DNA from: a bacterium | Lineage (GTDB): Bacteria; Bacillota; Clostridia; Oscillospirales; CAG-272 | Length of the DNA stretch: 64,000 bases | Direction: 5' to 3' | NCBI GenBank assembly: GCA_963642885.1 | Contig: CAVIJI010000008.1 | Span: forward strand, 14,873-78,872 | Part shown: positions 6,117-41,566 of the stretch, piece after piece | Numbering within the stretch: position 1 is the first letter of the stretch | Layout of the letters: each line of letters starts with the position of its first letter | Notes under the pieces: generated by a model | Told to the model about the DNA's origin: nothing | The model's input: the letters and a program-made list of their open reading frames with translations, nothing else | The model's database searches: none | Made by a program: the position numbers and the translations under genes

Positions 6117-8261
6117 CTATTCGTTTATTCCCTTTCGTGTCAATGAAATGCGCTTTCTCTTGACATCCACGCTTTTTACCGCCACCTTTATTATATCACC
6201 CACAGAATAAAGCTCCGACGGGTGTTTGATAAACCTATCGCTCATCTCGGAAATATGAAGCAGTCCGTCCTGATGAACTCCTATATCGACAAAGGCACCG
6301 AAATCTATTACGTTTCTGACCGTTCCCGTAAGCACCATGCCTTCACTCAGATCCTCCATGGTAAGTACACTGTTTCTTAATACGGGCGGCGGAAGAGTAT
6401 CTCGGATGTCACGTCCGGGTTTTTCGAGCTCGTCGAGTATATCCGAAAGTGTCAATTCTCCGATACCGAGCTCCGATGCAAGTTTCTCCTTTCCGTATTT
6501 TTGCACAGATTCTTTTAAATTTATACCTCCATACGCGTCTTCCTTTTTGTACCCGAATTTCGCGAGAAGCTTTTCGGCCGCTTTATACGATTCAGGATGC
6601 ACACCGGTATTATCGAATGCCTCATCTCCGCCCGGAATACGCAAAAATCCCGCTGCCTGTTCAAACGCCTTCGCACCGAAACGGGGCACTTTAAGAATCT
6701 CACGGCGAGTTTTGAATTCTCCGTTTTCCTCGCGATATTTTACAATATTCTTCGCAGAGGCGGTATTTATTCCCGAAATATACGATAGCAGCGAATACGA
6801 CGCGGTATTCACATCAACTCCCACTGAGTTCACACACGATTCAACAACACCTGTCAGCGCCTCGTCAAGTCTTACGGGCTTCATGTCATGCTGATATTGT
6901 CCGACTCCTATCGATTTTGGATCGATCTTTACAAGCTCCGCAAGAGGATCCTGAAGTCTTCTGGCAATAGACACCGCGCTTCGTTCCGTAACATCAAAGT
7001 CCGGAAACTCTTCCGCACCGAGTTCTGACGCGGAATAGACACTCGCCCCCGCTTCGGAAACAATTATATATTTTGTTTTTCCTCCGATTTCACCGAGCAA
7101 TTCCGCAATGAACATTTCACTCTCACCGGATGCCGTACCGTTTCCTATGGCCACGACATCAACCGAGTACTTCTCTATGAGACGGCGAACTGTTTTTTTT
7201 GATTCGTCGATGCGCTCATGCGGCTTTGTGGGATAAATAACGGCTGTCTCTGCAACGGCTCCTGTTTTTGTGACAACCGCAAGCTTGCATCCTGTTCTGT
7301 AGCCGGGGTCGTATCCCAAAACCGTTTTACCTTTAAGCGGTGCCTGCATAAGAAGATTCTTCAAATTAACGGAAAAGAGAGATATTGCACTCTCACTCGC
7401 CCTGTCGGTAAGCTCTGCTCTTATTTCCCTTTCGATAGACGGTGCGATAAGTCTGTCATAACCGTCGCTGACAGCCGATGCCATATACTGAAATGCGCCG
7501 CTTTTATAGTTCGTTATAATCTCCGCAAAAAGCGCGTTCAGTATAATATCACGGTCTATTTCTATACCGACAGAAAGTGACTCATCCTTTTCTCCGCGAT
7601 TCACCGCAAGGATTCTGTGCGGCGGTATTTTCGACAACGGTTCGGAATAATCACTGTATTGCTCGTATGTGTGATTTTCCTTAGTCATCTTCGAAACAAG
7701 CTTTCCGTGACGCATGGTAAGGTTTCTTATCATACGTCTGTATCCTGCATTGTCGCTCACTTCTTCCGCAATTATATCGCACGCCCCAGCCAACGCATCG
7801 GATACGGTTTTTACTTCATCGTTTATGTATTTTTCCGCTTCCTTTTCTATCGGTGTGGGGTATTCCTTTAATTGCTCCGAAATAAGCAATGCGAGCGGTT
7901 CAAGGCCGTGCTCACGTGCTGTTGATGCTCTTGTTTTTCTCTTCGGTCTGTACGGACGGTAAATATCGTCCACCTCGGTTACAGTTTCGGCATCATCTAT
8001 TGCCGCAACAAGCTCATCCGTAAGTTTACCTTGGTTATCAATCAAATTTTTTACTTCGTCCTTCCGTTTTTCCAGACTTCTGAGATATGTCAGTCTGTCC
8101 AACAGATTTCTGAGCACTCCGTCATCGAGTCCTCCCGTGACTTCTTTTCTGTAACGTGCGACAAAAGGAACGGTGTTGCCCGCATCAAGAAGCTCTACAG
8201 CCGAATTCAGCTTCTCGAGCGGTATTTTAAGTTCGCTTGCTATTTTTTCGTTTATATTCAT
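6117..8261 (-). CDS. tex: Tex-like transcription accessory protein (YqgF/HhH/S1 domains)
   Basis: 714 aa. N-terminus ...TVPFVARYRKEVTGGLDD. C-terminal S1 domain (GMVLTGTVRNVIDFGAFVDIGVHQDGLLHISE). Confidence 0.9.
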   Translation of the reverse strand: MNINEKIASELKIPLEKLNSAVELLDAGNTVPFVARYRKEVTGGLDDGVLRNLLDRLTYLRSLEKRKDEVKNLIDNQGKLTDELVAAIDDAETVTEVDDIYRPYRPKRKTRASTAREHGLEPLALLISEQLKEYPTPIEKEAEKYINDEVKTVSDALAGACDIIAEEVSDNAGYRRMIRNLTMRHGKLVSKMTKENHTYEQYSDYSEPLSKIPPHRILAVNRGEKDESLSVGIEIDRDIILNALFAEIITNYKSGAFQYMASAVSDGYDRLIAPSIEREIRAELTDRASESAISLFSVNLKNLLMQAPLKGKTVLGYDPGYRTGCKLAVVTKTGAVAETAVIYPTKPHERIDESKKTVRRLIEKYSVDVVAIGNGTASGESEMFIAELLGEIGGKTKYIIVSEAGASVYSASELGAEEFPDFDVTERSAVSIARRLQDPLAELVKIDPKSIGVGQYQHDMKPVRLDEALTGVVESCVNSVGVDVNTASYSLLSYISGINTASAKNIVKYREENGEFKTRREILKVPRFGAKAFEQAAGFLRIPGGDEAFDNTGVHPESYKAAEKLLAKFGYKKEDAYGGINLKESVQKYGKEKLASELGIGELTLSDILDELEKPGRDIRDTLPPPVLRNSVLTMEDLSEGMVLTGTVRNVIDFGAFVDIGVHQDGLLHISEMSDRFIKHPSELYSVGDIIKVAVKSVDVKRKRISLTRKGINE

Positions 8262-10997: not shown

Positions 10998-11003
10998 AAA
11001 TAC

Positions 11004-11132
11004 ATCATATGACTGACGGATGATGCGGAAACACCATATATTGTGCTTTGCATAATATGGAAGAACCGCGTGGAGTATGATTGTATATTAGCCGACCGTC
11101 TGGGCACCTTCGCTCGGACGTCGGCTTTTTTA
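11004..11132 (+). promoter_or_regulatory. ZTP riboswitch (pfl motif) with intrinsic terminator
   Basis: P1 is ATCATA (11004-11009) with TATGAT. UGACUG core is identical to the consensus. Pseudoknot GACGG (11015-11019) pairs with CCGTC (11096-11100). Conserved 3' CCGUCUGGGCA (11096-11106). Terminator AGCCGAC(C)GTC...GACGTCGGCT plus T6 (11090-11132). Confidence 0.85.
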
Positions 11133-11158
11133 GTTCTCGCAACAGAAAGGATACTGTG

Positions 11159-11872
11159 ATGCTCGGGTATATCCACTCATTCGAATCCATGGGACTTGTT
11201 GACGGCCCCGGTATACGCAGTGTCGTATTCATGCAGGGATGTCCCATGAGATGTATCTACTGTCACAATCCCGACACTTGGAAAACGGGTGAAGCGAACA
11301 CCATGTCTCCCGAGGATATTTTAAAAAAGCTGCTTAGATTCAAAGTATACTACGGAAATGACGGAGGTGTTACTTTTTCGGGCGGCGAACCGCTTGCGCA
11401 GCCGCAATTCCTTGCACAATGTCTTAAATTATGCAGAAGCAATGGAATTAATACATGTCTTGACACATCCGGGTGCGGAAACGGTGATTACGACGAAATA
11501 CTGAAATATACCGATCTCATACTTTACGATGTAAAGCATTATGACTCGGTTATGTACCGAACAATCACGTCGCAGCCTATCGAGCGTACACTGTTATTCC
11601 TCGATTCCGCACAAAGGCTCGGTATTCCTCTTTGGATAAGGCACGTAGTTGTTCCTGAAATTACCGACAGTATCGAGCATTTCGAGAAGCTTGAGGCTTA
11701 TATCAGGACTTTAAAAAATGTAAAGCGTGTTGAACTACTGCCGTATCACAATCTCGGCGAATCCAAATACGCTGCCATGGGAATCGAGTACAAGCTTAAA
11801 GGCCTTCAGCCGACAAAAAACGAAAACATAAACATTTGGAACGACAGACTTAATAAAAACTGTTTGTCGTAA
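11159..11872 (+). CDS. pflA: Pyruvate formate-lyase activating enzyme (radical SAM)
   Basis: Start moved from track position 11081, which lies inside the riboswitch, to ATG 11159 with an [46 protein letters not shown] contains the CX3CX2C motif. Confidence 0.92.
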
Positions 11873-11889
11873 AACTTACGGAGGTTACA

Positions 11890-14133
11890 ATGAGTATTGA
11901 TGTAAACTGCAGTGCATGGAGCGGATTTAAAACCGGAGAATGGCGCCATCTCGTCAATGTACGCAACTTTATACAAAAGAATTACACCCCATATTCGGGT
12001 GATGAAAGCTTTCTTTCTGGAATTTCCGAAAAAACATCGAAAATATGGGAAAAAGCCGAAGCACTGATTAAGGAAGAAATCAACAAGGGAATTATAGATG
12101 TCGAGGTTAATGCCGTAGCGGGAATCAACAATTTCGCGCCCGGTTATATCGACCGTGACAACGAGGTTATCGTAGGTCTGCAAACAGATGCTCCTCTGAA
12201 AAGGATAGTAAATCCGTTCGGCGGAATGAGGAACGCGGAGTCTGCTCTCGAACAGTACGGCTATCATCTTAATCCCGAAATCGAAAAGCACTTTAAGCTA
12301 TACCGCAAAACTCACAACGAAGGTGTTTTCGATGCGTATCCGAAACGTACAAGACTTGCGAGAACGGCCGGATTGCTCACAGGTCTCCCCGATGCATACG
12401 GCAGAGGAAGAATCGTAGGTGACTACAGAAGAGTTCCGTTATACGGTACCGATTTTCTGATTGAAGAAAAGAAAAAGGATCTCGATCTGCTTGACGGCCC
12501 GATGACCGACGAACGCATCCGCCTCAGAGAAGAAGTACAGATGCAAATACGTGCGCTTAACGAAATGAAGGAAATGGCACTCACATACGGCTGTGACATA
12601 TCAAAACCTGCCGAAAACGCGCGTGAAGCCGTACAGAATCTTTATCTCGCGTACTTAGCGGGAACAAAAGAAAACAACGGAGCCGCAACTTCTCTCGGTA
12701 GAACATCGACATTCCTTGATATATACATTCAGCGTGATATCGAAAACGGATTGATTACCGAAAAGGATGCGCAGGAGCTTATCGACCAGTTCATAATAAA
12801 GCTTCGTTTAATCAGGCATCTCAGAACACCCGAATATAATGAATTGTTCGGCGGCGACCCGACATGGGTAACGGAATCGATAGGCGGAATGGGTGTTGAC
12901 GGACGTACTTTAGTCACCAAAAACTCTTTCCGTTATCTTCACACATTAATCAACCTCGGAACCGCACCCGAGCCTAATTTAACCGTACTCTGGAGCAAAG
13001 CTCTTCCGAAAGCCTTCAAAGATTACTGTGCTCGAATAAGCATTGACACCGACTCGATTCAGTACGAAAACGACGATATAATGCGTCCCATGTACGGTGA
13101 TGATTACTGCATTGCATGCTGTGTGTCCGCAATGGCTGTAGGTAAACAGATGCAATTCTTCGGTGCGAGAGCAAATCTGGCTAAAAGCCTTTTATACGCA
13201 ATAAACGGAGGCGTCGACGAAATCAAAGGCATAAAGGTTGTTCCCGAAATCGAAAAGGATAATGACGAGGTATTGGAATACTCCAAGGTATTGGCAAACT
13301 ACAAGAAAGTTCTTGCATATGTCGCGGAGCTTTATGTCGACACAATCAACATTATCCACTACATGCACGATAAATACGCATACGAAAGCAGTCAGATGGC
13401 ACTCCACGACACCTTGGTAGATAGACTTGCCGCATTCGGTGTAGCCGGCTTGTCTATCGCAGCAGATTCGCTGTCGGCAATCAAATTCGCAAAGGTTAAA
13501 CCGATACGAAACGAAAACGGAATAACCGTCGATTTTGATGTCGAAGGAGATTTTCCCAAATACGGCAATGATAATGATCTCGTTGATGATATAGCGGTAG
13601 AAATTGTTTCCTATTTCTCTGCGGAATTGAAAAAGCACCCCCTCTACCGCGGTGCGATGCACACCCTTTCCGCGCTTACAATAACGAGCAATGTAATGTA
13701 CGGTAAAAAAACAGGCTCTACTCCCGACGGAAGGAACGCGGGAGAACCTTTCGCACCGGGTGCGAATCCCATGCACGGCCGTGATGTATACGGAGCTCTC
13801 GCTTCGCTTAACTCAGTCGCAAAAATACCGTATCGCGCGGTATGCCAGGATGGTATATCAAACACATTCTCTATCGTTCCCGCCGCTCTCGGTAAAACAG
13901 ACGAAAGCCGCACAAAGAATCTCGTGTCAATTCTCGACGGATACTTTGCGCAGGGAGCACATCATCTTAATGTAAACGTTATGAACCGTGAAATACTCGA
14001 GGATGCAATGGAACACCCCGAAAAATATCCGACACTGACTATACGTGTATCGGGTTATGCGGTAAACTTCAACCGACTCACACGCGAACAGCAGCTTGAA
14101 GTAATCAAACGTACATTCCACGAAAGCATGTAA
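11890..14133 (+). CDS. pflB: Formate C-acetyltransferase (pyruvate formate-lyase)
   Basis: 747 aa. Active-site CIACCVS. C-terminal glycyl-radical motif [11 protein letters not shown]. Confidence 0.95.
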
Positions 14134-31506: not shown

Positions 31507-31535
31507 TTGACATTTTTGGTAATCAGTGATATCAT
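31507..31535 (+). promoter_or_regulatory. Promoter of the Tyr T-box leader
   Basis: TTGACA (31507-31512), 17-nt spacer, extended -10 TGaTATCAT (31527-31535). Confidence 0.7.
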
Positions 31536-31544
31536 ATACATATG

Positions 31545-31833
31545 TTTACAATGCGATGATGGAAAAAAAGTAGCATGAGGTACTCTGCAGAGAGTCGGTG
31601 GTTGGTGAAAACCGATGAAGTTAACTTGTGTGAATACATTTCCGTAGCAGCACACCGAAGGGTTGAATATCTTGTATAACCTGTGTAGGCTGTGACGTCT
31701 GATATACGTTACAATATCGGGGCATTATTTATTAAGTGCCTGCTGAGGCTGTACTTGTAAAAGTGCGGTAAATTGAGGTGGTAACACGGTACATCCGTCC
31801 TCTGCTTGATTAGTCGGCAGAGGACTTTTTTTG
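31545..31833 (+). promoter_or_regulatory. T-box riboswitch, Tyr specifier (UAC)
   Basis: GCGATGA K-turn start. AGAGAGU AG-bulge. Distal loop UUGGUGAAAACC. Specifier loop GAA-UAC-A (UAC at 31635-31637). T-box sequence GAGGUGGUAACACGG. Terminator GTCCTCTGC (31798-31806) / GCAGAGGAC (31818-31826) plus T7. Confidence 0.9.
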
Positions 31834-31908
31834 TTCTCCGCCGATCTAAGAATCATTTCTTATTTTAGAAGGAGGCATAGCCGTACACATAGCAGTACGG
31901 CTGAGATT

Positions 31909-33543
31909 ATGGTAATTACCGATCTTCTCGAAAAAAATGCAAAGCTGTATCCTGATGAAGTGGCATTGGTGGAAATAAACCCCGCAAATCAGCCCGATGT
32001 TAATATTACCTGGCGTGAGTATTCATTAATCGAAGCGACACCGGGTGAAAAATACCGCCGTGAAATGACATGGAAAGAATTCGATACGAAAGCAAATCGT
32101 TTTGCGAATCTGCTGAAAACACGTGGTGTTGAAAAGGGCGACAAGGTTGCCATTTTACTGATGAACTGTCTTGAATGGCTTCCGATTTATTTCGGAATAC
32201 TCAAAACAGGTGCTCTTGCGGTTCCGATGAACTATCGTTACTCTTCAGATGAAATCAAGTACTGTACCGAATTAGCCGATGTATCCGTTCTTGTTTTCGG
32301 TCCGGAATTCACAGAACGTGTATCCACGGTATTCCTCGATATGCCGCTTGTCAAGGATTACTTTTTTGTAGGTAAAAATCCGCCCGAATTCGCGGGAAGT
32401 TATGACAAGCTTGTTACATACTGCTCATCAACAGCTCCCGCTGTCGATTTGAGTGAGGACGACGATGCTGCGATTTATTTTTCATCAGGTACTACAGGAT
32501 TTCCTAAGGCTATACTTCATGCCCATCGTTCTTTAATCAATTCATGTCGTACCGAACAGAATCATCATGGTCAAACCAGAAATGATGTTTTCTTATGTAT
32601 ACCTCCGCTTTATCATACAGGTGCTAAGATGCATTGGTTCGGCAGTTTAATCAGCGGAAGCCGTGCCGTAATTCTCAAAGGTGTATCTCCCGAGTGGATA
32701 CTGCGTACCATATCAAACGAAAAAGCTACGATTGTTTGGCTTCTTGTTCCGTGGGCTCAAGATATACTCGATGCCATTGACAGAGGCGACATTAAGCTCG
32801 AAGATTACCGTCTGTCGCAGTGGAGACTCATGCACATAGGAGCACAGCCCGTACCGCCGTCACTTATTAAACGTTGGAAAGCGATTTTCCCTCATCATCA
32901 ATATGACACGAATTACGGTTTGTCCGAATCTATCGGCCCAGGATGTGTTCATCTCGGAGTTGACAATATCGACAAGGTTGGTGCCATAGGAGTTCCCGGT
33001 TACCTTTGGGAAGCTGACATTGTAGGATCCGACGGACACAGCTGTGCTGACGAAGAAGTCGGTGAATTGATTGTAAAAGGCCCCGGTGTGATGAAATGTT
33101 ACTATAAAAACGAGACCGCTACAAACGAGATTCTGAAAAACGGTTGGCTATATACGGGTGATATGGCCAAGCGTGACAGCGAAGGATTTATTTACCTTGT
33201 AGACCGTAAAAAAGATGTAGTTATCACCGGCGGTGAAAATCTTTATCCCGTACAAATCGAAGATTATTTAAGACAAAACGATAAAATCAAAGATGTGGCT
33301 GTCATCGGGCTGCCCGACACGCGGCTCGGTGAAATAGCGGCGGCAATAATTGAGCTTAAACCCGACGTCACCGCTACCGAAGACGAAATTAATGAATTCT
33401 GTCTCGGTCTGCCGCGCTACAAACGCCCGAAAAAGATTATTTTCGCGGACGTTCCACGCAATCCCACAGGCAAAATAGAAAAACCTAAGCTCAGAGAGAT
33501 GTATTGCGGTGTTTCTCTTGTTGAAGCTCAAACAACAAGATAA
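31909..33543 (+). CDS. AMP-dependent acyl-CoA synthetase/ligase (class I adenylate-forming enzyme), substrate unknown
   Basis: Start moved to ATG 31909, because track start 31831 lies in the terminator U-run. SSGTTGFPKA, YGLSES, GWLYTGDMAKRDSEGFIYLVDRKKD and PTGKIEKPKL motifs. Confidence 0.85.
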   Translation: MVITDLLEKNAKLYPDEVALVEINPANQPDVNITWREYSLIEATPGEKYRREMTWKEFDTKANRFANLLKTRGVEKGDKVAILLMNCLEWLPIYFGILKTGALAVPMNYRYSSDEIKYCTELADVSVLVFGPEFTERVSTVFLDMPLVKDYFFVGKNPPEFAGSYDKLVTYCSSTAPAVDLSEDDDAAIYFSSGTTGFPKAILHAHRSLINSCRTEQNHHGQTRNDVFLCIPPLYHTGAKMHWFGSLISGSRAVILKGVSPEWILRTISNEKATIVWLLVPWAQDILDAIDRGDIKLEDYRLSQWRLMHIGAQPVPPSLIKRWKAIFPHHQYDTNYGLSESIGPGCVHLGVDNIDKVGAIGVPGYLWEADIVGSDGHSCADEEVGELIVKGPGVMKCYYKNETATNEILKNGWLYTGDMAKRDSEGFIYLVDRKKDVVITGGENLYPVQIEDYLRQNDKIKDVAVIGLPDTRLGEIAAAIIELKPDVTATEDEINEFCLGLPRYKRPKKIIFADVPRNPTGKIEKPKLREMYCGVSLVEAQTTR

Positions 33544-33559
33544 ATTATCTATATAAAAC

Positions 33560-33612
33560 AGCAACCCTCACAGGTGATGTACTGTACGTACACCGCTCGT
33601 GAGGGTTTTGTT
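33560..33612. terminator. Bidirectional terminator between the convergent ligase gene and gltD
   Basis: CAACCCTCAC (33562-33571) pairs with GTGAGGGTTTTG (33599-33610). Confidence 0.75.
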
Positions 33613-33616
33613 ATAT

Positions 33617-35098
33617 TTATTCCATGTTGCTGTATTCCATAAGATACTCATCAACCTCGACGGCACATGCCCTTCCCTCGGCTATCGCCCATACTACCAA
33701 CGATTGCCCGCGATGAGCGTCTCCTGCGGTAAACACCTTAGGTACCGATGTTGAATACTTTCCGCTGTCACTGATAAGACAACCACGTGCATTTTTTTGA
33801 ACTCCGAAAGCCTCTGCAACATAGCTCTCACATCCCACAAAACCTGCGGCAATGAGTAAAAGATCACACGGTATTGTTTCCTCGCTTCCGCTAACCTCTT
33901 CCATAATTGTCCTGCCGCTTGATTCGTCCCTTTTCATATTGAGCTTAACAGTCCGCAAAGCCGATATGTGCCCGTTTTCATCGGATAATATCTCCTTAAC
34001 CGTTGTCTCATATATTCTCGGATCACGACCGAATACAACAGCCGCTTCTTCCTGCCCATAGTCATTCTTACAGATTCGCGGCCATTGCGGCCATGGATTA
34101 CCGTCGGTACGTTTATCGGGCAGTTTTTTCATCATTTCAAGCTGAACGACAGATGCGCATTTTTGCCGTATAGCGGTTCCGACACAATCATTTCCCGTGT
34201 CTCCGCCGCCTATTACAACAACATTCTTTCCGAACGCATCAATACCGAAATTTTCTCTGTCACCTATGATTTTTTCGGTCGCGGATGTGAGATAATCTAC
34301 GGCGAAATATATACCTTCCGAATTTCTGCCCGGTACACTGATATCTCTTGCGGTTTTTGCACCGCAAGAAAGTACTACAGCATCGTAATCGCTAAGTATA
34401 TCGGAAGCAGAAACATTAACGCCGACATTGGCACCGCATATAAATTCGACACCTTCTTCACGCATCATATTGACACGTCTCTCGATGACACTCTTATCCA
34501 ATTTCATATTGGGAATGCCGTACATCAATAGTCCGCCGGGCTTAGCTGCTCGCTCAAATACCGTGACCGAGTGTCCTCTTTTATTAAGTCTTTCGGCAAC
34601 AGTCAGACCCGCAGGACCCGAACCGATTACGGCTACTTTCTTACCGCTTCGAACTTTCGGAATCTCGGGCTTTATCCATCCGTTTTTATAACCTTCTTCT
34701 ATAACGGCAAGCTCGTTGTCGTGGATGGTAACAGCATCTCCGTTCATCCCGCATGTACATGCGGCTTCGCATAAAGCCGGGCACACACGTCCCGTGAATT
34801 CGGGAAAGTCATTGGTCTTCAACAGTCTTTTCAATGCCTCCTGCCAATCTCCGTTGTATACAGCATCATTCCACTCGGGAATTAAATTGTGCAAAGGACA
34901 TCCGCTGAACATCCCACCGTATAAAGTACCGGATTGACAGAACGGTACCCCGCAATTCATACATCTCGAAGCCTGTTCACGACGCTGTACCGAATCCAAA
35001 ATAGCGTGAAATTCGTTGAAATTATTAATTCGTTCCGACACAGGAATACATGGAGATGATATTCTGTTAAACTCTAAAAATCCCGTAGGTTTTCCCAT
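33617..35098 (-). CDS. gltD: Glutamate synthase (NADPH) small subunit
   Basis: 493 aa. N-terminal Fe-S Cys cluster (CMNCGVPFC...CP) and the dinucleotide fold VAVIGSGPAGL. Confidence 0.9.
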   Translation of the reverse strand: MGKPTGFLEFNRISSPCIPVSERINNFNEFHAILDSVQRREQASRCMNCGVPFCQSGTLYGGMFSGCPLHNLIPEWNDAVYNGDWQEALKRLLKTNDFPEFTGRVCPALCEAACTCGMNGDAVTIHDNELAVIEEGYKNGWIKPEIPKVRSGKKVAVIGSGPAGLTVAERLNKRGHSVTVFERAAKPGGLLMYGIPNMKLDKSVIERRVNMMREEGVEFICGANVGVNVSASDILSDYDAVVLSCGAKTARDISVPGRNSEGIYFAVDYLTSATEKIIGDRENFGIDAFGKNVVVIGGGDTGNDCVGTAIRQKCASVVQLEMMKKLPDKRTDGNPWPQWPRICKNDYGQEEAAVVFGRDPRIYETTVKEILSDENGHISALRTVKLNMKRDESSGRTIMEEVSGSEETIPCDLLLIAAGFVGCESYVAEAFGVQKNARGCLISDSGKYSTSVPKVFTAGDAHRGQSLVVWAIAEGRACAVEVDEYLMEYSNME

Positions 35099-35111: not shown

Positions 35112-38100
35112 TTATTTAATAGTTTCGGCAAGATAAAATGCTTTTAATTTAGCCTGTTCATAAGGAATCCCCTTCTCCTCGAGTTTTCCTATGCATATCA
35201 TCATTTTACGATAATCCTCGGGTATAATTTTTTTGAAATTCGGTAAAAACTCATCAAAGTGTTCGAGTACTTTTTTTCCTAAAGCTGAACCTGTCTCCGC
35301 AACATGATTAGCAATCAATTTTTTCAGTTCATCGGCATCATGCTGCTCCGTTATCTCTGTCATCGTCACCATTTGTTTGTTCAGCTTAAGGTATAAATCG
35401 TGATCCGTATCGAGAACATACGCTATACCACCGCTCATTCCGGCCGCGAAATTTTTACCTGTTTTTCCCAAAATCACAGCGCAGCCACCTGTCATATATT
35501 CACATCCGTGATCTCCGCAGCCTTCGACTACGGCAACAGCACCCGAATTCCTTACGCAGAATCTCTCACCTGCGATACCGTTAATATACGCCTCACCGCT
35601 TGTGGCTCCGTATAACGCAACATTACCTATAATAATATTTTTTTCTGCCGCAAAGCTCGAACCATCTTCGGGTTTTACCGTAAGTTTTCCCCCGGATAAA
35701 CCTTTTCCGAAGTAATCGTTTGAATCACCTTTAAGCTTGATTGTCAAACCCTTCGGCAGGAATGCTCCGAATGATTGACCGCCACCGCCGTTTGCATTTA
35801 TGATATATGTGTCGTCTGTTAAAGTATTTCCGAATCTTTTTGTAATAACAGAGCCGAGTATGGTCCCGAAAGTGCGGTTCGTACTTGATACCTTAATGTT
35901 TGTTTCATGTTTTCGGTTGCTCATGAAATATTTTTCGAATTCGGGAATCAAAATCGATTCGTCTATTGTTTTTTCGAGTTCGAAATTATACTTTGCGCTG
36001 TTATCAAAATGATAATATCTTCCGTTGCTCTCCCCCATAAGGCTCGTTAAATCAATCGTTTCAGCACGATGAGTTATCAGCTTGCTGCGGACACGTATTT
36101 TTTCGGTATGTCCCACAAGTTCGTTAACGGTATGAACTCCGAGCTTTGCCATGATTTCACGCAGCTCTTCGGCGATAAATTTCATAAAATTCATAACATA
36201 TTCGGGCTTTCCGCAAAAACGCTTTCTGAGCTCGGGATTTTGCGTTGCTATACCTACGGGACATGTATCGAGATTGCACACACGCATCATTACGCAGCCC
36301 ATCGAAACAAGCGGTGCGGTAGCGAATCCGAATTCTTCGGCGCCGAGTATGCAAGCTATGGCTACATCTCTTCCGCTCATCAGTTTTCCGTCTGTTTCAA
36401 GTCTTACTCTTTCCCTCAGTCCGTTTTTTACAAGTGTTTGATGAGCTTCCGCAAGTCCCAATTCCCACGGTAAACCCGCATTATGTATAGAGCTTCGCGG
36501 AGCGGCACCTGTTCCGCCGTCGTATCCCGAAATCAGAACCACTTCTGCTCCTGCCTTCGCTACGCCTGACGCTATTGTACCGACTCCCGCTTCCGATACA
36601 AGCTTTACCGATATGCTCGCGTCACGATTAGCGTTTTTTAAATCAAATATCAATTGTGCAAGATCTTCTATCGAATATATATCATGATGCGGCGGAGGTG
36701 AAATCAGTGAAACACCTGGTGTAGAGTAACGTGTTTCCGCAATCCACGGATAAACCTTTTTTCCGGGTAAATGTCCCCCTTCTCCGGGCTTAGCGCCTTG
36801 TGCCATTTTTATCTGTATTTCCTTTGCGCTGCATAAATATTCGCTTGTCACTCCGAATCTTCCCGATGCAACCTGCTTTATGGCACTGTTTTTAATTGTC
36901 CCGAATCTTGCGGGATTTTCACCGCCCTCTCCCGAATTTGATTTACCTCCGAGTGTATTCATGGCTATAGCCATGCATTCATGGGCTTCCTGCGATATCG
37001 AACCGTATGACATTGCACCCGTTTTAAATCTCTTGACTATTTCGGAAACAGGTTCGACCTCATCAAGCGGTATTCCTCCGTTTTCATCCCATACAAACTC
37101 CAAAAGGCCACGTAATGTATGAGGCTTTCTTTCGTCATCAACCGCAGCGGTATATTCTTTAAATCTTTCGTATGAACCTGTGTGAGTAGCTTCGCGAAGT
37201 GCTATGATTGTCTGAGGGTTATACATATGATCCTCGGCATTATTATTCGAACGAAGCTTATGTATTCCCGCGCTGTCCGCTGTAGTATCAACACCGAGTC
37301 CGAGAGGGTCAAATGCGTGATTATGGCGCCACTCTACACCCTCGTTTATCTCCGCAAGACCTATACCCTCAACAGGACTTACAGTATTCGTGAAATACTT
37401 GTCGGTGACTGATTTACATATGCCCACAGCTTCGAATATCTGTGCCGATTGATATGACTGAAGTGTCGATATACCCATTTTAGATGCTATTTTAACTATA
37501 CCGTGAAGGATGGCGTTGTTATAATCTTCTATGGCAGTGTGATAATCCTTATCAAGTCTGCCGCTGTCGATAAGCGAAGCAACACACTCCTGTGCAAGAT
37601 ACGGATTTATCGCACGTGCTCCGTAACCGAGCAATGTCGCAAAATGATGTACATCTCTCGGCTCACCGCTTTCAAGAATTATGGAAACCGATGTACGCTT
37701 TTTGGTTCGAATGAGGTACTGCTCCATTGCGGAAACAGCCAGAAGTGACGGTATTGCGACATGATTTTCGTCTATACCTCTGTCTGATAAAATCAAAATA
37801 TTGGCTCCGTCACGGTATTCTCTGTCGCATTCAACGAAAAGTCTGTCTAATGCTTTTTCCAAAGAAGTATTCTTATAATACAGCAATGATACCGTAGATA
37901 CTTTAAATCCCGATTTGTTCATAGAGCGTATCTTCATTAAATCTACGGACGTCAGTATCGGATTGTTAATCTGAAGCACACTGCAGTTATCGGGCTTTTC
38001 TTCCAGTAAATTTCCATCTGAACCGACATAAACCGTAGTATCCGTTACTATTTCCTCACGAAGTGAGTCTATAGGAGGATTGGTCACTTGAGCGAAAAGC

Positions 38101-39638
38101 TGCTTGAAATAATTGAATAAGGGCTGATGTTTCTCGGATAATACCGCTAACGGAACATCACATCCCATTGAAGCAGTTGCTTCGATTCCGTTCTTCGCCA
38201 TCGGTAAAATTGCGTCGTTTATGTCTTCGTATGTATAACCGAATACTTTACACAGTCTGTCTCTTTCCTGTGCGGTATACATGGAAACCTTTTTATTCGG
38301 TACCGAAAGTGATGAAAGTGAAACAAGATACCTGTCAAGCCATTCACCGTATGGTTTACGTGAAGCATAATATTCCTTGCATTCTTCGTCGGATACAATT
38401 TTTTTATTAACCGTATCTACAAGAAGCATTTTACCGGGTTCCAAACGTGACTTGCATACAATATCATCTGACGGTATTTCGAGAACTCCGACTTCAGATG
38501 AAAGGATAAGCCTTCTGTCTTTTGTCACATAGTATCTTGCCGGTCTTAATCCGTTTCTGTCGAGCACAGCCCCTATAATATCACCGTCGGAAAATAAAAT
38601 AGCTGCGGGACCATCCCACGGTTCCATCATGGTTGCGTAATACCTGTAAAGGTCTCGCTTCTCACGGGTCATGTCCGTACTGTTTTTCCACGGTTCGGGA
38701 ATCGTTATCATTACGGCAAGAGGCAACGGAATACCGTTCATTTCGAGAAATTCAAGTGTATTGTCCAGCATAGCGGAATCCGAGCCGGATGCGGATATAA
38801 CCGGATATACCTTGTCCAAATCCGATTGCATCAGTGTCGAACGCATTGTTTCCTCACGTGCGAGCATTCTGTCCGCATTGCCTCTGATTGTATTGATTTC
38901 ACCGTTATGCAAAATAAGGCGATTCGGGTGGGCTCTCTCCCAACTCGGTGTTGTATTGGTAGAAAATCTGGAATGAACCATAGCGATTGCACTTTCGTAT
39001 GATTCGTCCATAAGATCAAGATAAAACCTTCTGAGCTGCTTTACGAGGAACATGCCTTTGTATACAACCGTACGTGACGACAATGAACATACATATGTAT
39101 TGTCATTGCTCTGCTCGAAAACTCTTCGTATCACATACAGCTTTCTGTCAAAATCAAGTCCGCGTGATATATTCGACGGTCGTTCAACAAAACATTGAGC
39201 AATGAACGGCATGGTATTCTTGGCTTTTTCGCCCAAAATCGTGCTGTCGGTCGGAACATCTCTCCAACCGAGCAGCCGTACACCTTCCTTATCGCAAATA
39301 ATTTCAAACATTTTTTTAGCTTGACGTCTTGCAAGAGTATTTTGCGGAAAGAAAAACATACCGACACCATAGTCACGGCTATTCGGCAAATCGAATCCCA
39401 GAGGTTTAACCGCTTTCGAGAAGAAAGTATGTGAAATCTGCAAAAGAATTCCGACTCCGTCACCTGTCTCCCCTGTTGCGTCCTTACCCGCTCTGTGCTC
39501 TAACTTTTCAACAATCGACAATGCGTCATTCACTATCGAATAAGATGCAGTGCCGTCTATGCTGACTACCGCACCTATACCGCATGCATCATGTTCATAG
39601 CTCTCACTGTATAATGTTTTTTGCTGACCATCCGTCAT
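35112..39638 (-). CDS. gltB: Glutamate synthase large subunit
   Basis: Start moved to ATG 39638; track start 39710 overlaps asnB. MTDGQQKTLYSESYEHDACGIG carries the Ntn amidotransferase Cys. FMN and 3Fe-4S regions are present. About 1508 aa. Confidence 0.93.
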   Translation of the reverse strand: MTDGQQKTLYSESYEHDACGIGAVVSIDGTASYSIVNDALSIVEKLEHRAGKDATGETGDGVGILLQISHTFFSKAVKPLGFDLPNSRDYGVGMFFFPQNTLARRQAKKMFEIICDKEGVRLLGWRDVPTDSTILGEKAKNTMPFIAQCFVERPSNISRGLDFDRKLYVIRRVFEQSNDNTYVCSLSSRTVVYKGMFLVKQLRRFYLDLMDESYESAIAMVHSRFSTNTTPSWERAHPNRLILHNGEINTIRGNADRMLAREETMRSTLMQSDLDKVYPVISASGSDSAMLDNTLEFLEMNGIPLPLAVMITIPEPWKNSTDMTREKRDLYRYYATMMEPWDGPAAILFSDGDIIGAVLDRNGLRPARYYVTKDRRLILSSEVGVLEIPSDDIVCKSRLEPGKMLLVDTVNKKIVSDEECKEYYASRKPYGEWLDRYLVSLSSLSVPNKKVSMYTAQERDRLCKVFGYTYEDINDAILPMAKNGIEATASMGCDVPLAVLSEKHQPLFNYFKQLFAQVTNPPIDSLREEIVTDTTVYVGSDGNLLEEKPDNCSVLQINNPILTSVDLMKIRSMNKSGFKVSTVSLLYYKNTSLEKALDRLFVECDREYRDGANILILSDRGIDENHVAIPSLLAVSAMEQYLIRTKKRTSVSIILESGEPRDVHHFATLLGYGARAINPYLAQECVASLIDSGRLDKDYHTAIEDYNNAILHGIVKIASKMGISTLQSYQSAQIFEAVGICKSVTDKYFTNTVSPVEGIGLAEINEGVEWRHNHAFDPLGLGVDTTADSAGIHKLRSNNNAEDHMYNPQTIIALREATHTGSYERFKEYTAAVDDERKPHTLRGLLEFVWDENGGIPLDEVEPVSEIVKRFKTGAMSYGSISQEAHECMAIAMNTLGGKSNSGEGGENPARFGTIKNSAIKQVASGRFGVTSEYLCSAKEIQIKMAQGAKPGEGGHLPGKKVYPWIAETRYSTPGVSLISPPPHHDIYSIEDLAQLIFDLKNANRDASISVKLVSEAGVGTIASGVAKAGAEVVLISGYDGGTGAAPRSSIHNAGLPWELGLAEAHQTLVKNGLRERVRLETDGKLMSGRDVAIACILGAEEFGFATAPLVSMGCVMMRVCNLDTCPVGIATQNPELRKRFCGKPEYVMNFMKFIAEELREIMAKLGVHTVNELVGHTEKIRVRSKLITHRAETIDLTSLMGESNGRYYHFDNSAKYNFELEKTIDESILIPEFEKYFMSNRKHETNIKVSSTNRTFGTILGSVITKRFGNTLTDDTYIINANGGGGQSFGAFLPKGLTIKLKGDSNDYFGKGLSGGKLTVKPEDGSSFAAEKNIIIGNVALYGATSGEAYINGIAGERFCVRNSGAVAVVEGCGDHGCEYMTGGCAVILGKTGKNFAAGMSGGIAYVLDTDHDLYLKLNKQMVTMTEITEQHDADELKKLIANHVAETGSALGKKVLEHFDEFLPNFKKIIPEDYRKMMICIGKLEEKGIPYEQAKLKAFYLAETIK

Positions 39639-39660
39639 ATCTCTACCCTTCCCACCGATT

Positions 39661-41241
39661 TTATTTACCGCTTTCTCCGTAATTTGCCAGAACCCTTGCA
39701 GATGGATCATTTACATCACATCCTGCCCAATCTTTGTTCGGCATCCAGAATCCTGTAATCATTTCCGCCTGATCGGGATAATATTTTTCGAATAACTCCC
39801 TGTACAGCAATGACTCCTTGGTAAACGGAACGGCATATGTGTATTTTTTTATTCTGTTTTTAAATTCATCATCCGTGTACTTCTTTTCGGCAAATGCTTT
39901 CAAATCATCCACCATGGAATGCCCAACCGCATCACTGAATGCGGCTTTCTCTCTCATCAAGATGTTTCTCGGAAGCCATTCACCCTCAAATGCGTGTCTT
40001 AAAAGATATTTACCTATGCCCCGGCTGTTAATCTTCATTTCGGGATTAAGTGCTAAAACATACTGTGCAAAATCTATATCTCCGAACGGAACTCTCGCCT
40101 CAAGTGAATTTACCGAAATACATCTGTCGGCTCTCAGCACATCATACATGTGTATCTCGCGGATTCTTTTCTCGGATTCCTTTTGAAAAGCATAAGCCGA
40201 TGGAGCGTAATCGGTGTATTTATATCCGAAAAGCTCATCCGAAATTTCACCTGTCAATATCACACGCAAATCAGTGTTATCGTGTATATATTTGCATACC
40301 AAATACATACCTATCGAAGCACGAATTGTCGTAATGTCATATGAGCCGATTACAGACACAACCGTCGGTAATGCCTCTAAAACATCACTCTCGGTAATTA
40401 TTACCTCCGTATGTTCGGATTTAATATAATCCGCAACCTCTCTCGCATATTTTAAATCTATCGCATCGGTGCTCATTCCAATAGCAAAGGTTCTGATAGG
40501 CTTTTCCGAAAGTCTTGCGGCAATCGAGCAAACAAGCGATGAATCCAAGCCTCCGGATAATAAAAATCCTATCGGTGCATCTGCATCCAAACGCTTCTTT
40601 ACTCCGCTTATCAACTTATCTTTGATTTTCCGTGCCGATGTTTCGAGGTCATCGTATATTACACTCTTCGGGCATGAAATATCATTGTAGCAGATAAATC
40701 TACCTCTTTTGTAAAAATGTCCCGGAGGAAACGGTTTGATTTTATCACAGATACCTACAAGGTTTTTGGCTTCGCTTGCGAACAATATCCCGCCGCATTT
40801 ATCAAAGCCGTAAAACAAAGGACGTATTCCTATCGGATCACGTGCGGCAATTAACTCCTTTGCTTTGCCATCGTAAATAATGCATGCGAACTCTGCGTCC
40901 AACTTTGCGAACATATCGGTTCCGTATTCCTTGTATAAAGGAAGAAGAAGTTCACAATCCGATTCTCCGAAAAACTTATAACCTTTGCCTTCAAGCTCCG
41001 TTTTCAGGCTTCTGAAGCCGTATATTTCACCGTTGCATACAGAATAACAGTCTTCATACGAAAACGGCTGCATTCCCCTCTCATCCGGTCCCATAATCGA
41101 AAGTCTGTGAAATCCGAGTATGCCGCCATCGACATTTATAATCCTCGACATATCCGGCCCACGTGATACTGTTTTATCAAAGCCTTCGATGAATTTTTCC
41201 TGTGATATTGTATTTCCGTAATATCCCATGATAGAACACAT
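39661..41241 (-). CDS. asnB: Asparagine synthase (glutamine-hydrolysing)
   Basis: 526 aa. N-terminal Cys2 (MCSIMGYYG) and PP-loop SGGLDSS. Confidence 0.9.
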   Translation of the reverse strand: MCSIMGYYGNTISQEKFIEGFDKTVSRGPDMSRIINVDGGILGFHRLSIMGPDERGMQPFSYEDCYSVCNGEIYGFRSLKTELEGKGYKFFGESDCELLLPLYKEYGTDMFAKLDAEFACIIYDGKAKELIAARDPIGIRPLFYGFDKCGGILFASEAKNLVGICDKIKPFPPGHFYKRGRFICYNDISCPKSVIYDDLETSARKIKDKLISGVKKRLDADAPIGFLLSGGLDSSLVCSIAARLSEKPIRTFAIGMSTDAIDLKYAREVADYIKSEHTEVIITESDVLEALPTVVSVIGSYDITTIRASIGMYLVCKYIHDNTDLRVILTGEISDELFGYKYTDYAPSAYAFQKESEKRIREIHMYDVLRADRCISVNSLEARVPFGDIDFAQYVLALNPEMKINSRGIGKYLLRHAFEGEWLPRNILMREKAAFSDAVGHSMVDDLKAFAEKKYTDDEFKNRIKKYTYAVPFTKESLLYRELFEKYYPDQAEMITGFWMPNKDWAGCDVNDPSARVLANYGESGK

Positions 41242-41251
41242 ATTATACTCC

Positions 41252-41509
41252 GTTTAAGCACAACTTTATTGAATTTCAGGACGAACTGTGCTGTCCGCGG
41301 TGCCACCTGTATTATCCGCATAGGATCTCTTTACTGCTCATTATTTAAGCATTGCAAATTAACGCTTTGCACACGCCGTACCTACTGTCATATATATGAG
41401 TTCGGTTTGGGGCTCGAAGGTGTTATTCGCGCAGGCATCGGAATACGTTTCTCACTGTCACGTACTCACTGTGTCCTCTGTATCTGCGGTACTTCTCCTC
41501 GTCACAGCC
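41252..41509 (-). promoter_or_regulatory. T-box riboswitch, Asn specifier (AAC)
   Basis: Minus-strand reading: GUGACGAGGAGAAGUA stem I base; specifier loop CGAAU-AAC-A (AAC at 41424-41422); T-box AGGUGGCACCGCGG (41308-41295), where UGGC predicts discriminator G. No U-tract terminator is visible before the GGAG SD at 41251-41248. Confidence 0.8.
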
Positions 41510-41566
41510 TTTTTTCACTTTATTTTTTAATTATAATTGTTTTATTCTCGGTAAGCCGATTCTACT

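Follow-up and report, generated by a model that had tools for sequence, protein, structure and literature searches.

A tyrosine T-box leader ahead of a FadD-like CoA ligase gene in an Oscillospirales genome, and a candidate role in aryl-acid salvage

The closest described counterpart of the RNA element examined here is the tyrS-type T-box leader of Bacillus subtilis, a class I transcriptional T-box (RF00230). We analyzed a leader of this class in a 64,000-nt stretch of DNA (the window; contig CAVIJI010000008.1, from a bacterium of the Oscillospirales lineage CAG-272), together with the ligase gene that follows it, here termed LIG; all coordinates count from the first letter of the window. Both leaders possess the same K-turn, S-turn specifier loop, AG bulge and distal loop in stem I, and the same stem II, IIA/B, stem III, UGGN antiterminator bulge and competing intrinsic terminator, with UAC as the specifier and UGGU in the bulge. 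They differ in the gene under control, which in the window encodes a FadD-like CoA ligase rather than an aminoacyl-tRNA synthetase, a shikimate-pathway enzyme or a recognised amino-acid transporter.

That rumen bacteria form phenylalanine and tyrosine from phenylacetate and 4-hydroxyphenylacetate is an old observation, and the assimilation of aryl acids in methanogens via the ligase PaaK and indolepyruvate:ferredoxin oxidoreductase (IOR, encoded by iorAB) is reportedly the subject of work by Tersteegen in 1997 and by Porat. PMC6737245 describes PaaK and IOR as assimilating aryl acids in methanogens by reductive carboxylation, following the same logic (aryl acid to aryl-CoA to arylpyruvate to amino acid) that we consider for the locus described here. 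Gene clusters around LIG orthologues share with that system a PaaK-like ligase, an ACT protein and the two IOR subunits IorA and IorB, each of which scores above its NCBIfam equivalog cut-off. In contrast to PaaK, LIG carries an AMP-binding_C domain instead of AMP-binding_C_2 and is an additional ligase that belongs to a different branch of the class I adenylate-forming (ANL) superfamily; in addition, IOR genes are not adjacent in the window, and gating by a T-box is undescribed for that pathway.

Two further systems provide points of comparison. Acs and ActP are the classical example of an AMP-forming ligase paired with a permease of the Na+/solute symporter (SSF) type. In 34 of 80 orthologue loci the ligase likewise has an SSF symporter gene as its neighbour on the same strand, and often only these two genes are under the T-box, an arrangement that fits uptake followed by trapping as a thioester; unlike the acs-actP module, however, the symporter is nearer to PutP/PanF than to ActP/MctC, and none is present in the window. 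The best sequence matches to LIG are FadD13, FadD5 and the PRK06187 subfamily, which have the same ANL core motifs. LIG departs from them in its family-specific N-terminal segment (alignments to other families mostly begin around residue 50) and in the context of its orthologues, which is that of aromatic amino-acid metabolism and not of lipid metabolism.

Neither CoA ligases nor IOR genes are named as targets in three T-box surveys (PMC2494555, PMC3766115 with its supplements, and PMC7778990), and a literature search, which did not cover Vitreschak 2008, Gutierrez-Preciado 2009, Porat 2004 or RegPrecise, returned no relevant paper joining a T-box with IOR, PaaK or an acyl-CoA synthetase. From the conserved gene neighbourhood and the specificity of the T-boxes in orthologues, we consider it reasonably probable that LIG is the tyrosine-branch activating enzyme of an aryl-acid salvage route that is induced by uncharged tRNA-Tyr.

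The T-box leader and its target gene

An Rfam cmscan search identifies a T-box at 31547-31805 on the forward strand with a score of 109.7 bits (gathering score 93, E 2.4e-23), covering model positions 1-219 of 219. The earlier note on this DNA, made from the letters alone, had described a complete tyrosine T-box, and this full-length match above the gathering score bears it out: each element lies where it had been placed (Table 1), and the UGGU falls within the folded antiterminator. The terminator, previously assigned to 31798-31833, folds as a hairpin starting one position upstream, at 31797, and its run of seven uridines ends at the same nucleotide. With a folding energy of -18 kcal/mol (z -4.81), this hairpin is equaled by 0 of 200 shuffled sequences. 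The 3′ arm of the predicted antiterminator is shared with the 5′ arm of the terminator, and the two structures are mutually exclusive. Stem I of the window scores 92.5 bits against a stem I covariance model, R1, built in this analysis from 18 leaders.

Bacterial tRNA-Tyr has a GUA anticodon and an A73 discriminator, which fits the UAC specifier and the UGGU bulge. The register of the specifier, in which UAC with C in its third position is followed by one base and the closing helix, agrees with the TBDB position rule and the C-rule (PMC7778990). The register originally read from GAA-UAC-A is upheld, and the specifier sits in the same register in 35 leaders. No tRNA genes were found in the window, and no tRNA-Tyr gene in 34 related loci. 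Ahead of one gene stands a canonical transcriptional T-box of class I, whose specifier is UAC (Tyr) and whose bulge is UGGU; as an RNA element it is unremarkable and belongs to a very familiar class.

The promoter that precedes the leader is near consensus, matching at 11 of 12 positions, and starts 9 nt past the stop codon of hisS (31498). A scan from the terminator to the ATG at 31909 revealed no promoter-like site. Downstream, gltD lies on the opposite strand and a two-way hairpin separates it from LIG, which leaves LIG as the only gene the leader can control. The earlier note had bracketed the gene in the same manner, between the T-box terminator and a hairpin given as 33560-33612, and single-gene control stands with the slightly longer hairpin listed in Table 1.

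Table 1. Positions of the leader, the ligase gene and its flanking features in the window
Feature	Position	Strand	Details
Promoter	31507-31535	+	sigma-70-type TTGACA, 17-nt spacer, TATCAT with upstream TG (TGnTATCAT)
Complete transcriptional T-box leader	31547-31833	+	stem I, stem II, IIA/B, stem III, antiterminator/terminator; Rfam and folding
Stem I	31549-31651	+	holds K-turn, AG bulge, distal loop and specifier loop
K-turn GCGAUGA	31553-31559	+	read in sequence
AGUA	31569-31572	+	read in sequence
AG bulge AGAGAGU	31589-31595	+	read in sequence
Distal loop GGUGAAA	31604-31610	+	read in sequence
Specifier codon UAC (Tyr)	31635-31637	+	context GAA-UAC-A, directly 5′ of closing helix UUUCC
T-box sequence GAGGUGGUAACACGG	31775-31789	+	UGGU at 31779-31782
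Antiterminator helix with 7-nt bulge UGGUAAC	31775-31802	+	fold of 31725-31812
Intrinsic terminator	31797-31833	+	hairpin 31797-31825, then U7 at 31827-31833
Shine-Dalgarno sequence GAAGGAGG	31868-31875	+	within ribosome-binding region 31868-31905
9-bp hairpin between Shine-Dalgarno sequence and ATG	31878-31903	+	-14.6 kcal/mol, z -3.5
LIG, class I adenylate-forming (ANL) acyl/aryl-CoA ligase	31909-33543	+	544 aa; Pfam, NCBIfam
Bidirectional terminator-like hairpin	33557-33612	both	-29.4 kcal/mol (+), -30.4 kcal/mol (-); z -5.7, -6.0
gltD	33617-35098	-	next gene, convergent with LIG

The product of LIG contains the Pfam domains AMP-binding (PF00501, 1.3e-71) and AMP-binding_C (PF13193, 1.3e-10), and its translation displays the ANL core motifs SSGTTGFPKA, YGLSES, YTGDMA and PTGKIEKPKL. 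With these domains and intact motifs it is, by sequence, a member of the ANL superfamily, and the class I adenylate-forming enzyme of roughly 545 residues reported previously is confirmed at 544. An alternative start at TTG 31831 was ruled out, as every orthologue begins where ATG 31909 lies, its first residues being M-[VPI]-I-T. The only strong Shine-Dalgarno sequence ahead of the gene, GAAGGAGG, lies 33 nt from this ATG; the intervening hairpin, if folded, would leave an effective distance of about 9 nt. The nearest relative (locus L001) lacks a 33-nt segment that includes the hairpin, and its Shine-Dalgarno sequence is 10 nt from the ATG.

Orthologues, their T-boxes and their gene clusters

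LIG has matches in more than 600 species genomes at 69% identity or above, of which the 80 best (69-90% identity) were used for locus comparisons. These come mostly from metagenome-assembled genomes of Oscillospirales and other Clostridia from gut and rumen. Pairwise identity across the 81 LIG sequences ranges from 63 to 97%, and 173 of 544 alignment columns are invariant. A sequence library clustered at 50% identity contains a single full-length representative of the family (898 bits), after which the next relatives fall to 610 bits and 53% identity. LIG is, on these comparisons, a sharply bounded and strongly constrained orthologous group. The nearest of these relatives, P0136 (53% identity), was examined for a shared context and proved uninformative, as it adjoins genes for a PP-binding carrier protein and for an ABC exporter, an unrelated setting. 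Three copies at 70-71% identity occur outside the Firmicutes, in two Thermoguttaceae genomes (L044, L069) and one Chloroflexota genome (L074), all metagenome-assembled, without a T-box or an IOR cluster; lateral transfer or a binning error is possible.

The T-box read from a single locus in the earlier note recurs among the orthologues. Matches to stem I model R1 of 61-98 bits lie upstream of LIG, or of a symporter-LIG pair, in 34 of the 80 loci as well as in the window. When aligned, the specifiers of these 35 leaders read UAC (Tyr) in 32 cases and UUC (Phe) in three, and the three UUC leaders fall in three separate LIG lineages. The bulge reads UGGU in each of the 18 full leaders of the alignment and in every associated match to the T-box sequence, which fits A73 of both tRNA-Tyr and tRNA-Phe. 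Stem I covaries across 39 related leaders, with compensatory changes in 14 of 15 pairs and 94% of cells paired, values that 0 of 500 shuffles reach. About 14 of the leaders control only LIG or a symporter-LIG pair, which marks LIG as the putative tyrosine-specific step; in about 20, transcription can run on into iorAB and often into paaK-ACT.

Clustering of the open reading frames that flank LIG in the 80 loci reveals a recurring order of (SSF symporter)-LIG-(SSF)-iorA-iorB-paaK-ACT-(aminotransferase). The iorA gene (TIGR03336, 715.8 bits, cut-off 650.9) is located directly downstream of LIG on the same strand in 36 loci, and the symporter (PF00474) adjoins LIG in 34. Less frequent are iorB (29 loci; NF005325, 274.6 bits, cut-off 230), a PaaK-like ligase (19 loci; TIGR02155, 556 bits) and an ACT protein (16 loci; ACT_8), while a class I/II aminotransferase (Aminotran_1_2) ends the cluster in several loci. 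Going by their family assignments, these genes together encode uptake, CoA activation, a reversible arylpyruvate/arylacetyl-CoA oxidoreductase and transamination.

Two variants of the cluster were also observed. An Amidohydro_2 gene (PF04909) of about 263 codons lies between SSF and LIG in L039, L060 and L078 and adjoins iorA in L083, L089-L092, L096, L099, L116, L121 and L123; its product could be an aryl-acid-releasing hydrolase or a (de)carboxylase. In L048, iorA-iorB lies between two LIG copies, of which the upstream one has the same orientation and the downstream one is convergent, a pairing that hints at paralogues differing in aryl-acid specificity.

We also compared 80 metagenome loci centred on IorA. 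Many of these have the order (SSF)-paaK′-iorA-iorB-paaK-ACT, in which a second PaaK paralogue occupies the position of LIG; most probably one arylacetate-activating enzyme has here been displaced by another that is not orthologous to it. L094 contains a phenylalanine T-box at 6272-6540 (+), with a score of 81.9 bits (E 2.7e-18) that is below the gathering score of 93, so that it is probably a T-box, although not of curated grade. It precedes a 100-aa TrpR/YerC-like open reading frame and then iorA-iorB-paaK-ACT, and the LIG gene of this locus is transcribed divergently without a T-box of its own. In L083 and L123, a tryptophan T-box (specifier UGG, bulge UGGC; 11148-11360, +) directly follows the ACT gene that closes an SSF-paaK′-iorAB-paaK-ACT cluster, and controls a 459-aa TrpB2-like protein.

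Proposed route, substrate and alternatives

In the proposed mechanism, the GUA anticodon of uncharged tRNA-Tyr would pair with the UAC of stem I, and its free ACCA-3′ end would pair with UGGU, favouring the antiterminator (31775-31802) over the terminator (31797-31833) and allowing RNA polymerase to read through into LIG. Exogenous 4-hydroxyphenylacetate would be imported, in many relatives probably by the adjacent Na+/solute symporter, and converted by LIG to 4-hydroxyphenylacetyl-CoA. IorAB, using reduced ferredoxin and CO2, would then form 4-hydroxyphenylpyruvate, from which an aminotransferase would produce tyrosine. The anabolic direction is suggested by two considerations: AMP-forming ligases drive the reaction from acid to thioester, and induction by amino-acid starvation fits only a supply route.

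Activation of an aryl acid for reductive carboxylation had been raised as a speculative option in the earlier note. The presence of iorA directly downstream of LIG and of the adjacent symporter in the orthologue loci favours that idea; the substrate is drawn from context, and the window holds no IOR gene. The same note had set the ligase apart from biosynthesis genes, a framing that is misleading, since on the salvage explanation LIG is itself a biosynthetic gene and the logic of its T-box would be ordinary.

Several observations weigh against the salvage explanation. A tblastn search of the 64-kb window detected no IorA, IorB, PaaK, ACT, SSF, Amidohydro_2 or aminotransferase gene, and the nearest relative (L001) also has LIG alone, after hisS. 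The pathway partner is thus assumed for this genome, where IorAB would have to be encoded outside the window. Furthermore, 46 of the 80 orthologue loci have no T-box match, about 8 of them with too little upstream sequence; an Rfam scan of 12 T-box-less loci found no T-box, only tRNAs and an unrelated cobalamin riboswitch.

The substrate, moreover, cannot be read from the LIG sequence. Database names for the family are limited to ‘acyl-CoA ligase’, ‘long-chain fatty acid-CoA ligase’ and ‘AMP-binding protein’. The best NCBIfam match is the generic PRK06187 model (NF004837, long-chain-fatty-acid-CoA ligase), whose cut-off of 476 bits LIG does not reach (407.4 bits), placing it outside that subfamily as the model defines it. 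The closest solved structures are the fatty-acyl ligases FadD13 (3r44, E 2.4e-71) and then FadD5, with feruloyl-CoA synthetase, MenE, MatB and 4CL farther away. As guides to the substrate, these structures and family models show low similarity and are not decisive. LIG also lacks AMP-binding_C_2, and PaaK is outside its 25 best NCBIfam matches; by domain content it is not a PaaK-type ligase and has its place elsewhere in the ANL superfamily. PaaK enzymes usually have a narrow specificity for phenylacetate, which in Penicillium is activated by a 4CL-type ligase; we regard both points as leads only.

This similarity to fatty-acyl, feruloyl and 4-coumarate ligases, together with the Amidohydro_2 gene that recurs in the clusters, would suit a different carboxylate, whether related to tyrosine or not (for example 3-(4-hydroxyphenyl)propionate, 4-hydroxyphenyllactate, 4-coumarate, or a fatty acid of medium or long chain), with proximity to IOR reflecting co-regulation and not a shared pathway. 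We consider this improbable. The products or substrates of IOR are arylacetyl-CoAs, a PaaK paralogue fills the LIG position in sister clusters, and the LIG clusters have no recurring gene for a dehydratase, an acyl-CoA dehydrogenase or a 2-hydroxyacid dehydrogenase; a role in fatty-acid metabolism would also leave 35 tyrosine and phenylalanine T-boxes unexplained.

No LIG alignment column separates the copies under phenylalanine T-boxes from those under tyrosine T-boxes, which also counts against strict tyrosine specificity, as LIG may accept both arylacetates and not only the 4-hydroxy compound. LIG could accordingly be a general arylacetate-CoA ligase acting on phenylacetate, 4-hydroxyphenylacetate and perhaps indoleacetate; the tyrosine specifier would then reflect the aromatic amino acid that is usually limiting, for example where prephenate dehydrogenase is weak or absent. 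Three independent lineages have switched their specifier to UUC, and the tyrosine T-box that in about 20 loci also governs iorAB and PaaK would serve phenylalanine too. A general ligase is nevertheless difficult to reconcile with a tyrosine specifier in 32 of 35 leaders, and with the leaders that put LIG or symporter-LIG alone under tyrosine control. Most clusters already hold a PaaK-type ligase, moreover, and a second enzyme of the same specificity would be redundant. We judge this alternative unlikely, though it deserves to be kept in view.

The affinity of the symporter for PutP and PanF over ActP or MctC is a further point against the salvage explanation, since its cargo could be an amino acid. 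Amino-acid transporters are common targets of T-boxes (PMC2494555), and the symporter-LIG module might on this basis serve primarily for tyrosine uptake, with the symporter importing tyrosine, LIG as an accessory or unrelated gene, and the window retaining LIG with an old leader. Such a role appears very improbable: the window and at least 18 other leaders have no symporter between the T-box and LIG, and the conservation of the ligase goes far beyond what an accessory gene would require.

Other RNA elements and biological meaning

The window contains two additional regulatory RNAs. A second full T-box at 41274-41514 (-; 110.7 bits) has the specifier AAC (Asn) and precedes asnB (39661-41241), followed on the same strand by gltB (35112-39710) and gltD (33617-35098). 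A ZMP/ZTP riboswitch at 10999-11112 (+; 46.5 bits) precedes a radical-SAM activase (11081-11872) and a PFL-like glycyl-radical enzyme (11890-14133), the classical context of the ‘pfl motif’.

The novelty of the LIG locus resides in the target of the T-box and its implication, not in the RNA element. Its specifier gives the LIG family, which is without functional annotation, a testable physiological role. Extended to the family, the salvage explanation would make LIG the missing 4-hydroxyphenylacetate-CoA ligase of a T-box-gated route (SSF symporter, ligase, IorAB and aminotransferase) in hundreds of gut and rumen species of Oscillospirales and other Clostridia, a proposal to which we give an even chance. 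Degradation and synthesis by bacterial IOR/PaaK clusters are hard to tell apart from sequence, and control by tRNA-Tyr or tRNA-Phe argues for synthesis. If the proposal is true, the tyrosine and phenylalanine T-boxes would be the first regulatory evidence for bacterial IOR clusters running anabolically, and would tie the old rumen observation of phenylalanine and tyrosine formation from aryl acids to specific genes. It would also mean that these bacteria consume 4-hydroxyphenylacetate and phenylacetate, the precursors of p-cresol and phenylacetylglutamine, for their own tyrosine and phenylalanine; as such aryl acids are host-relevant gut metabolites, their bacterial consumers would be of practical interest.

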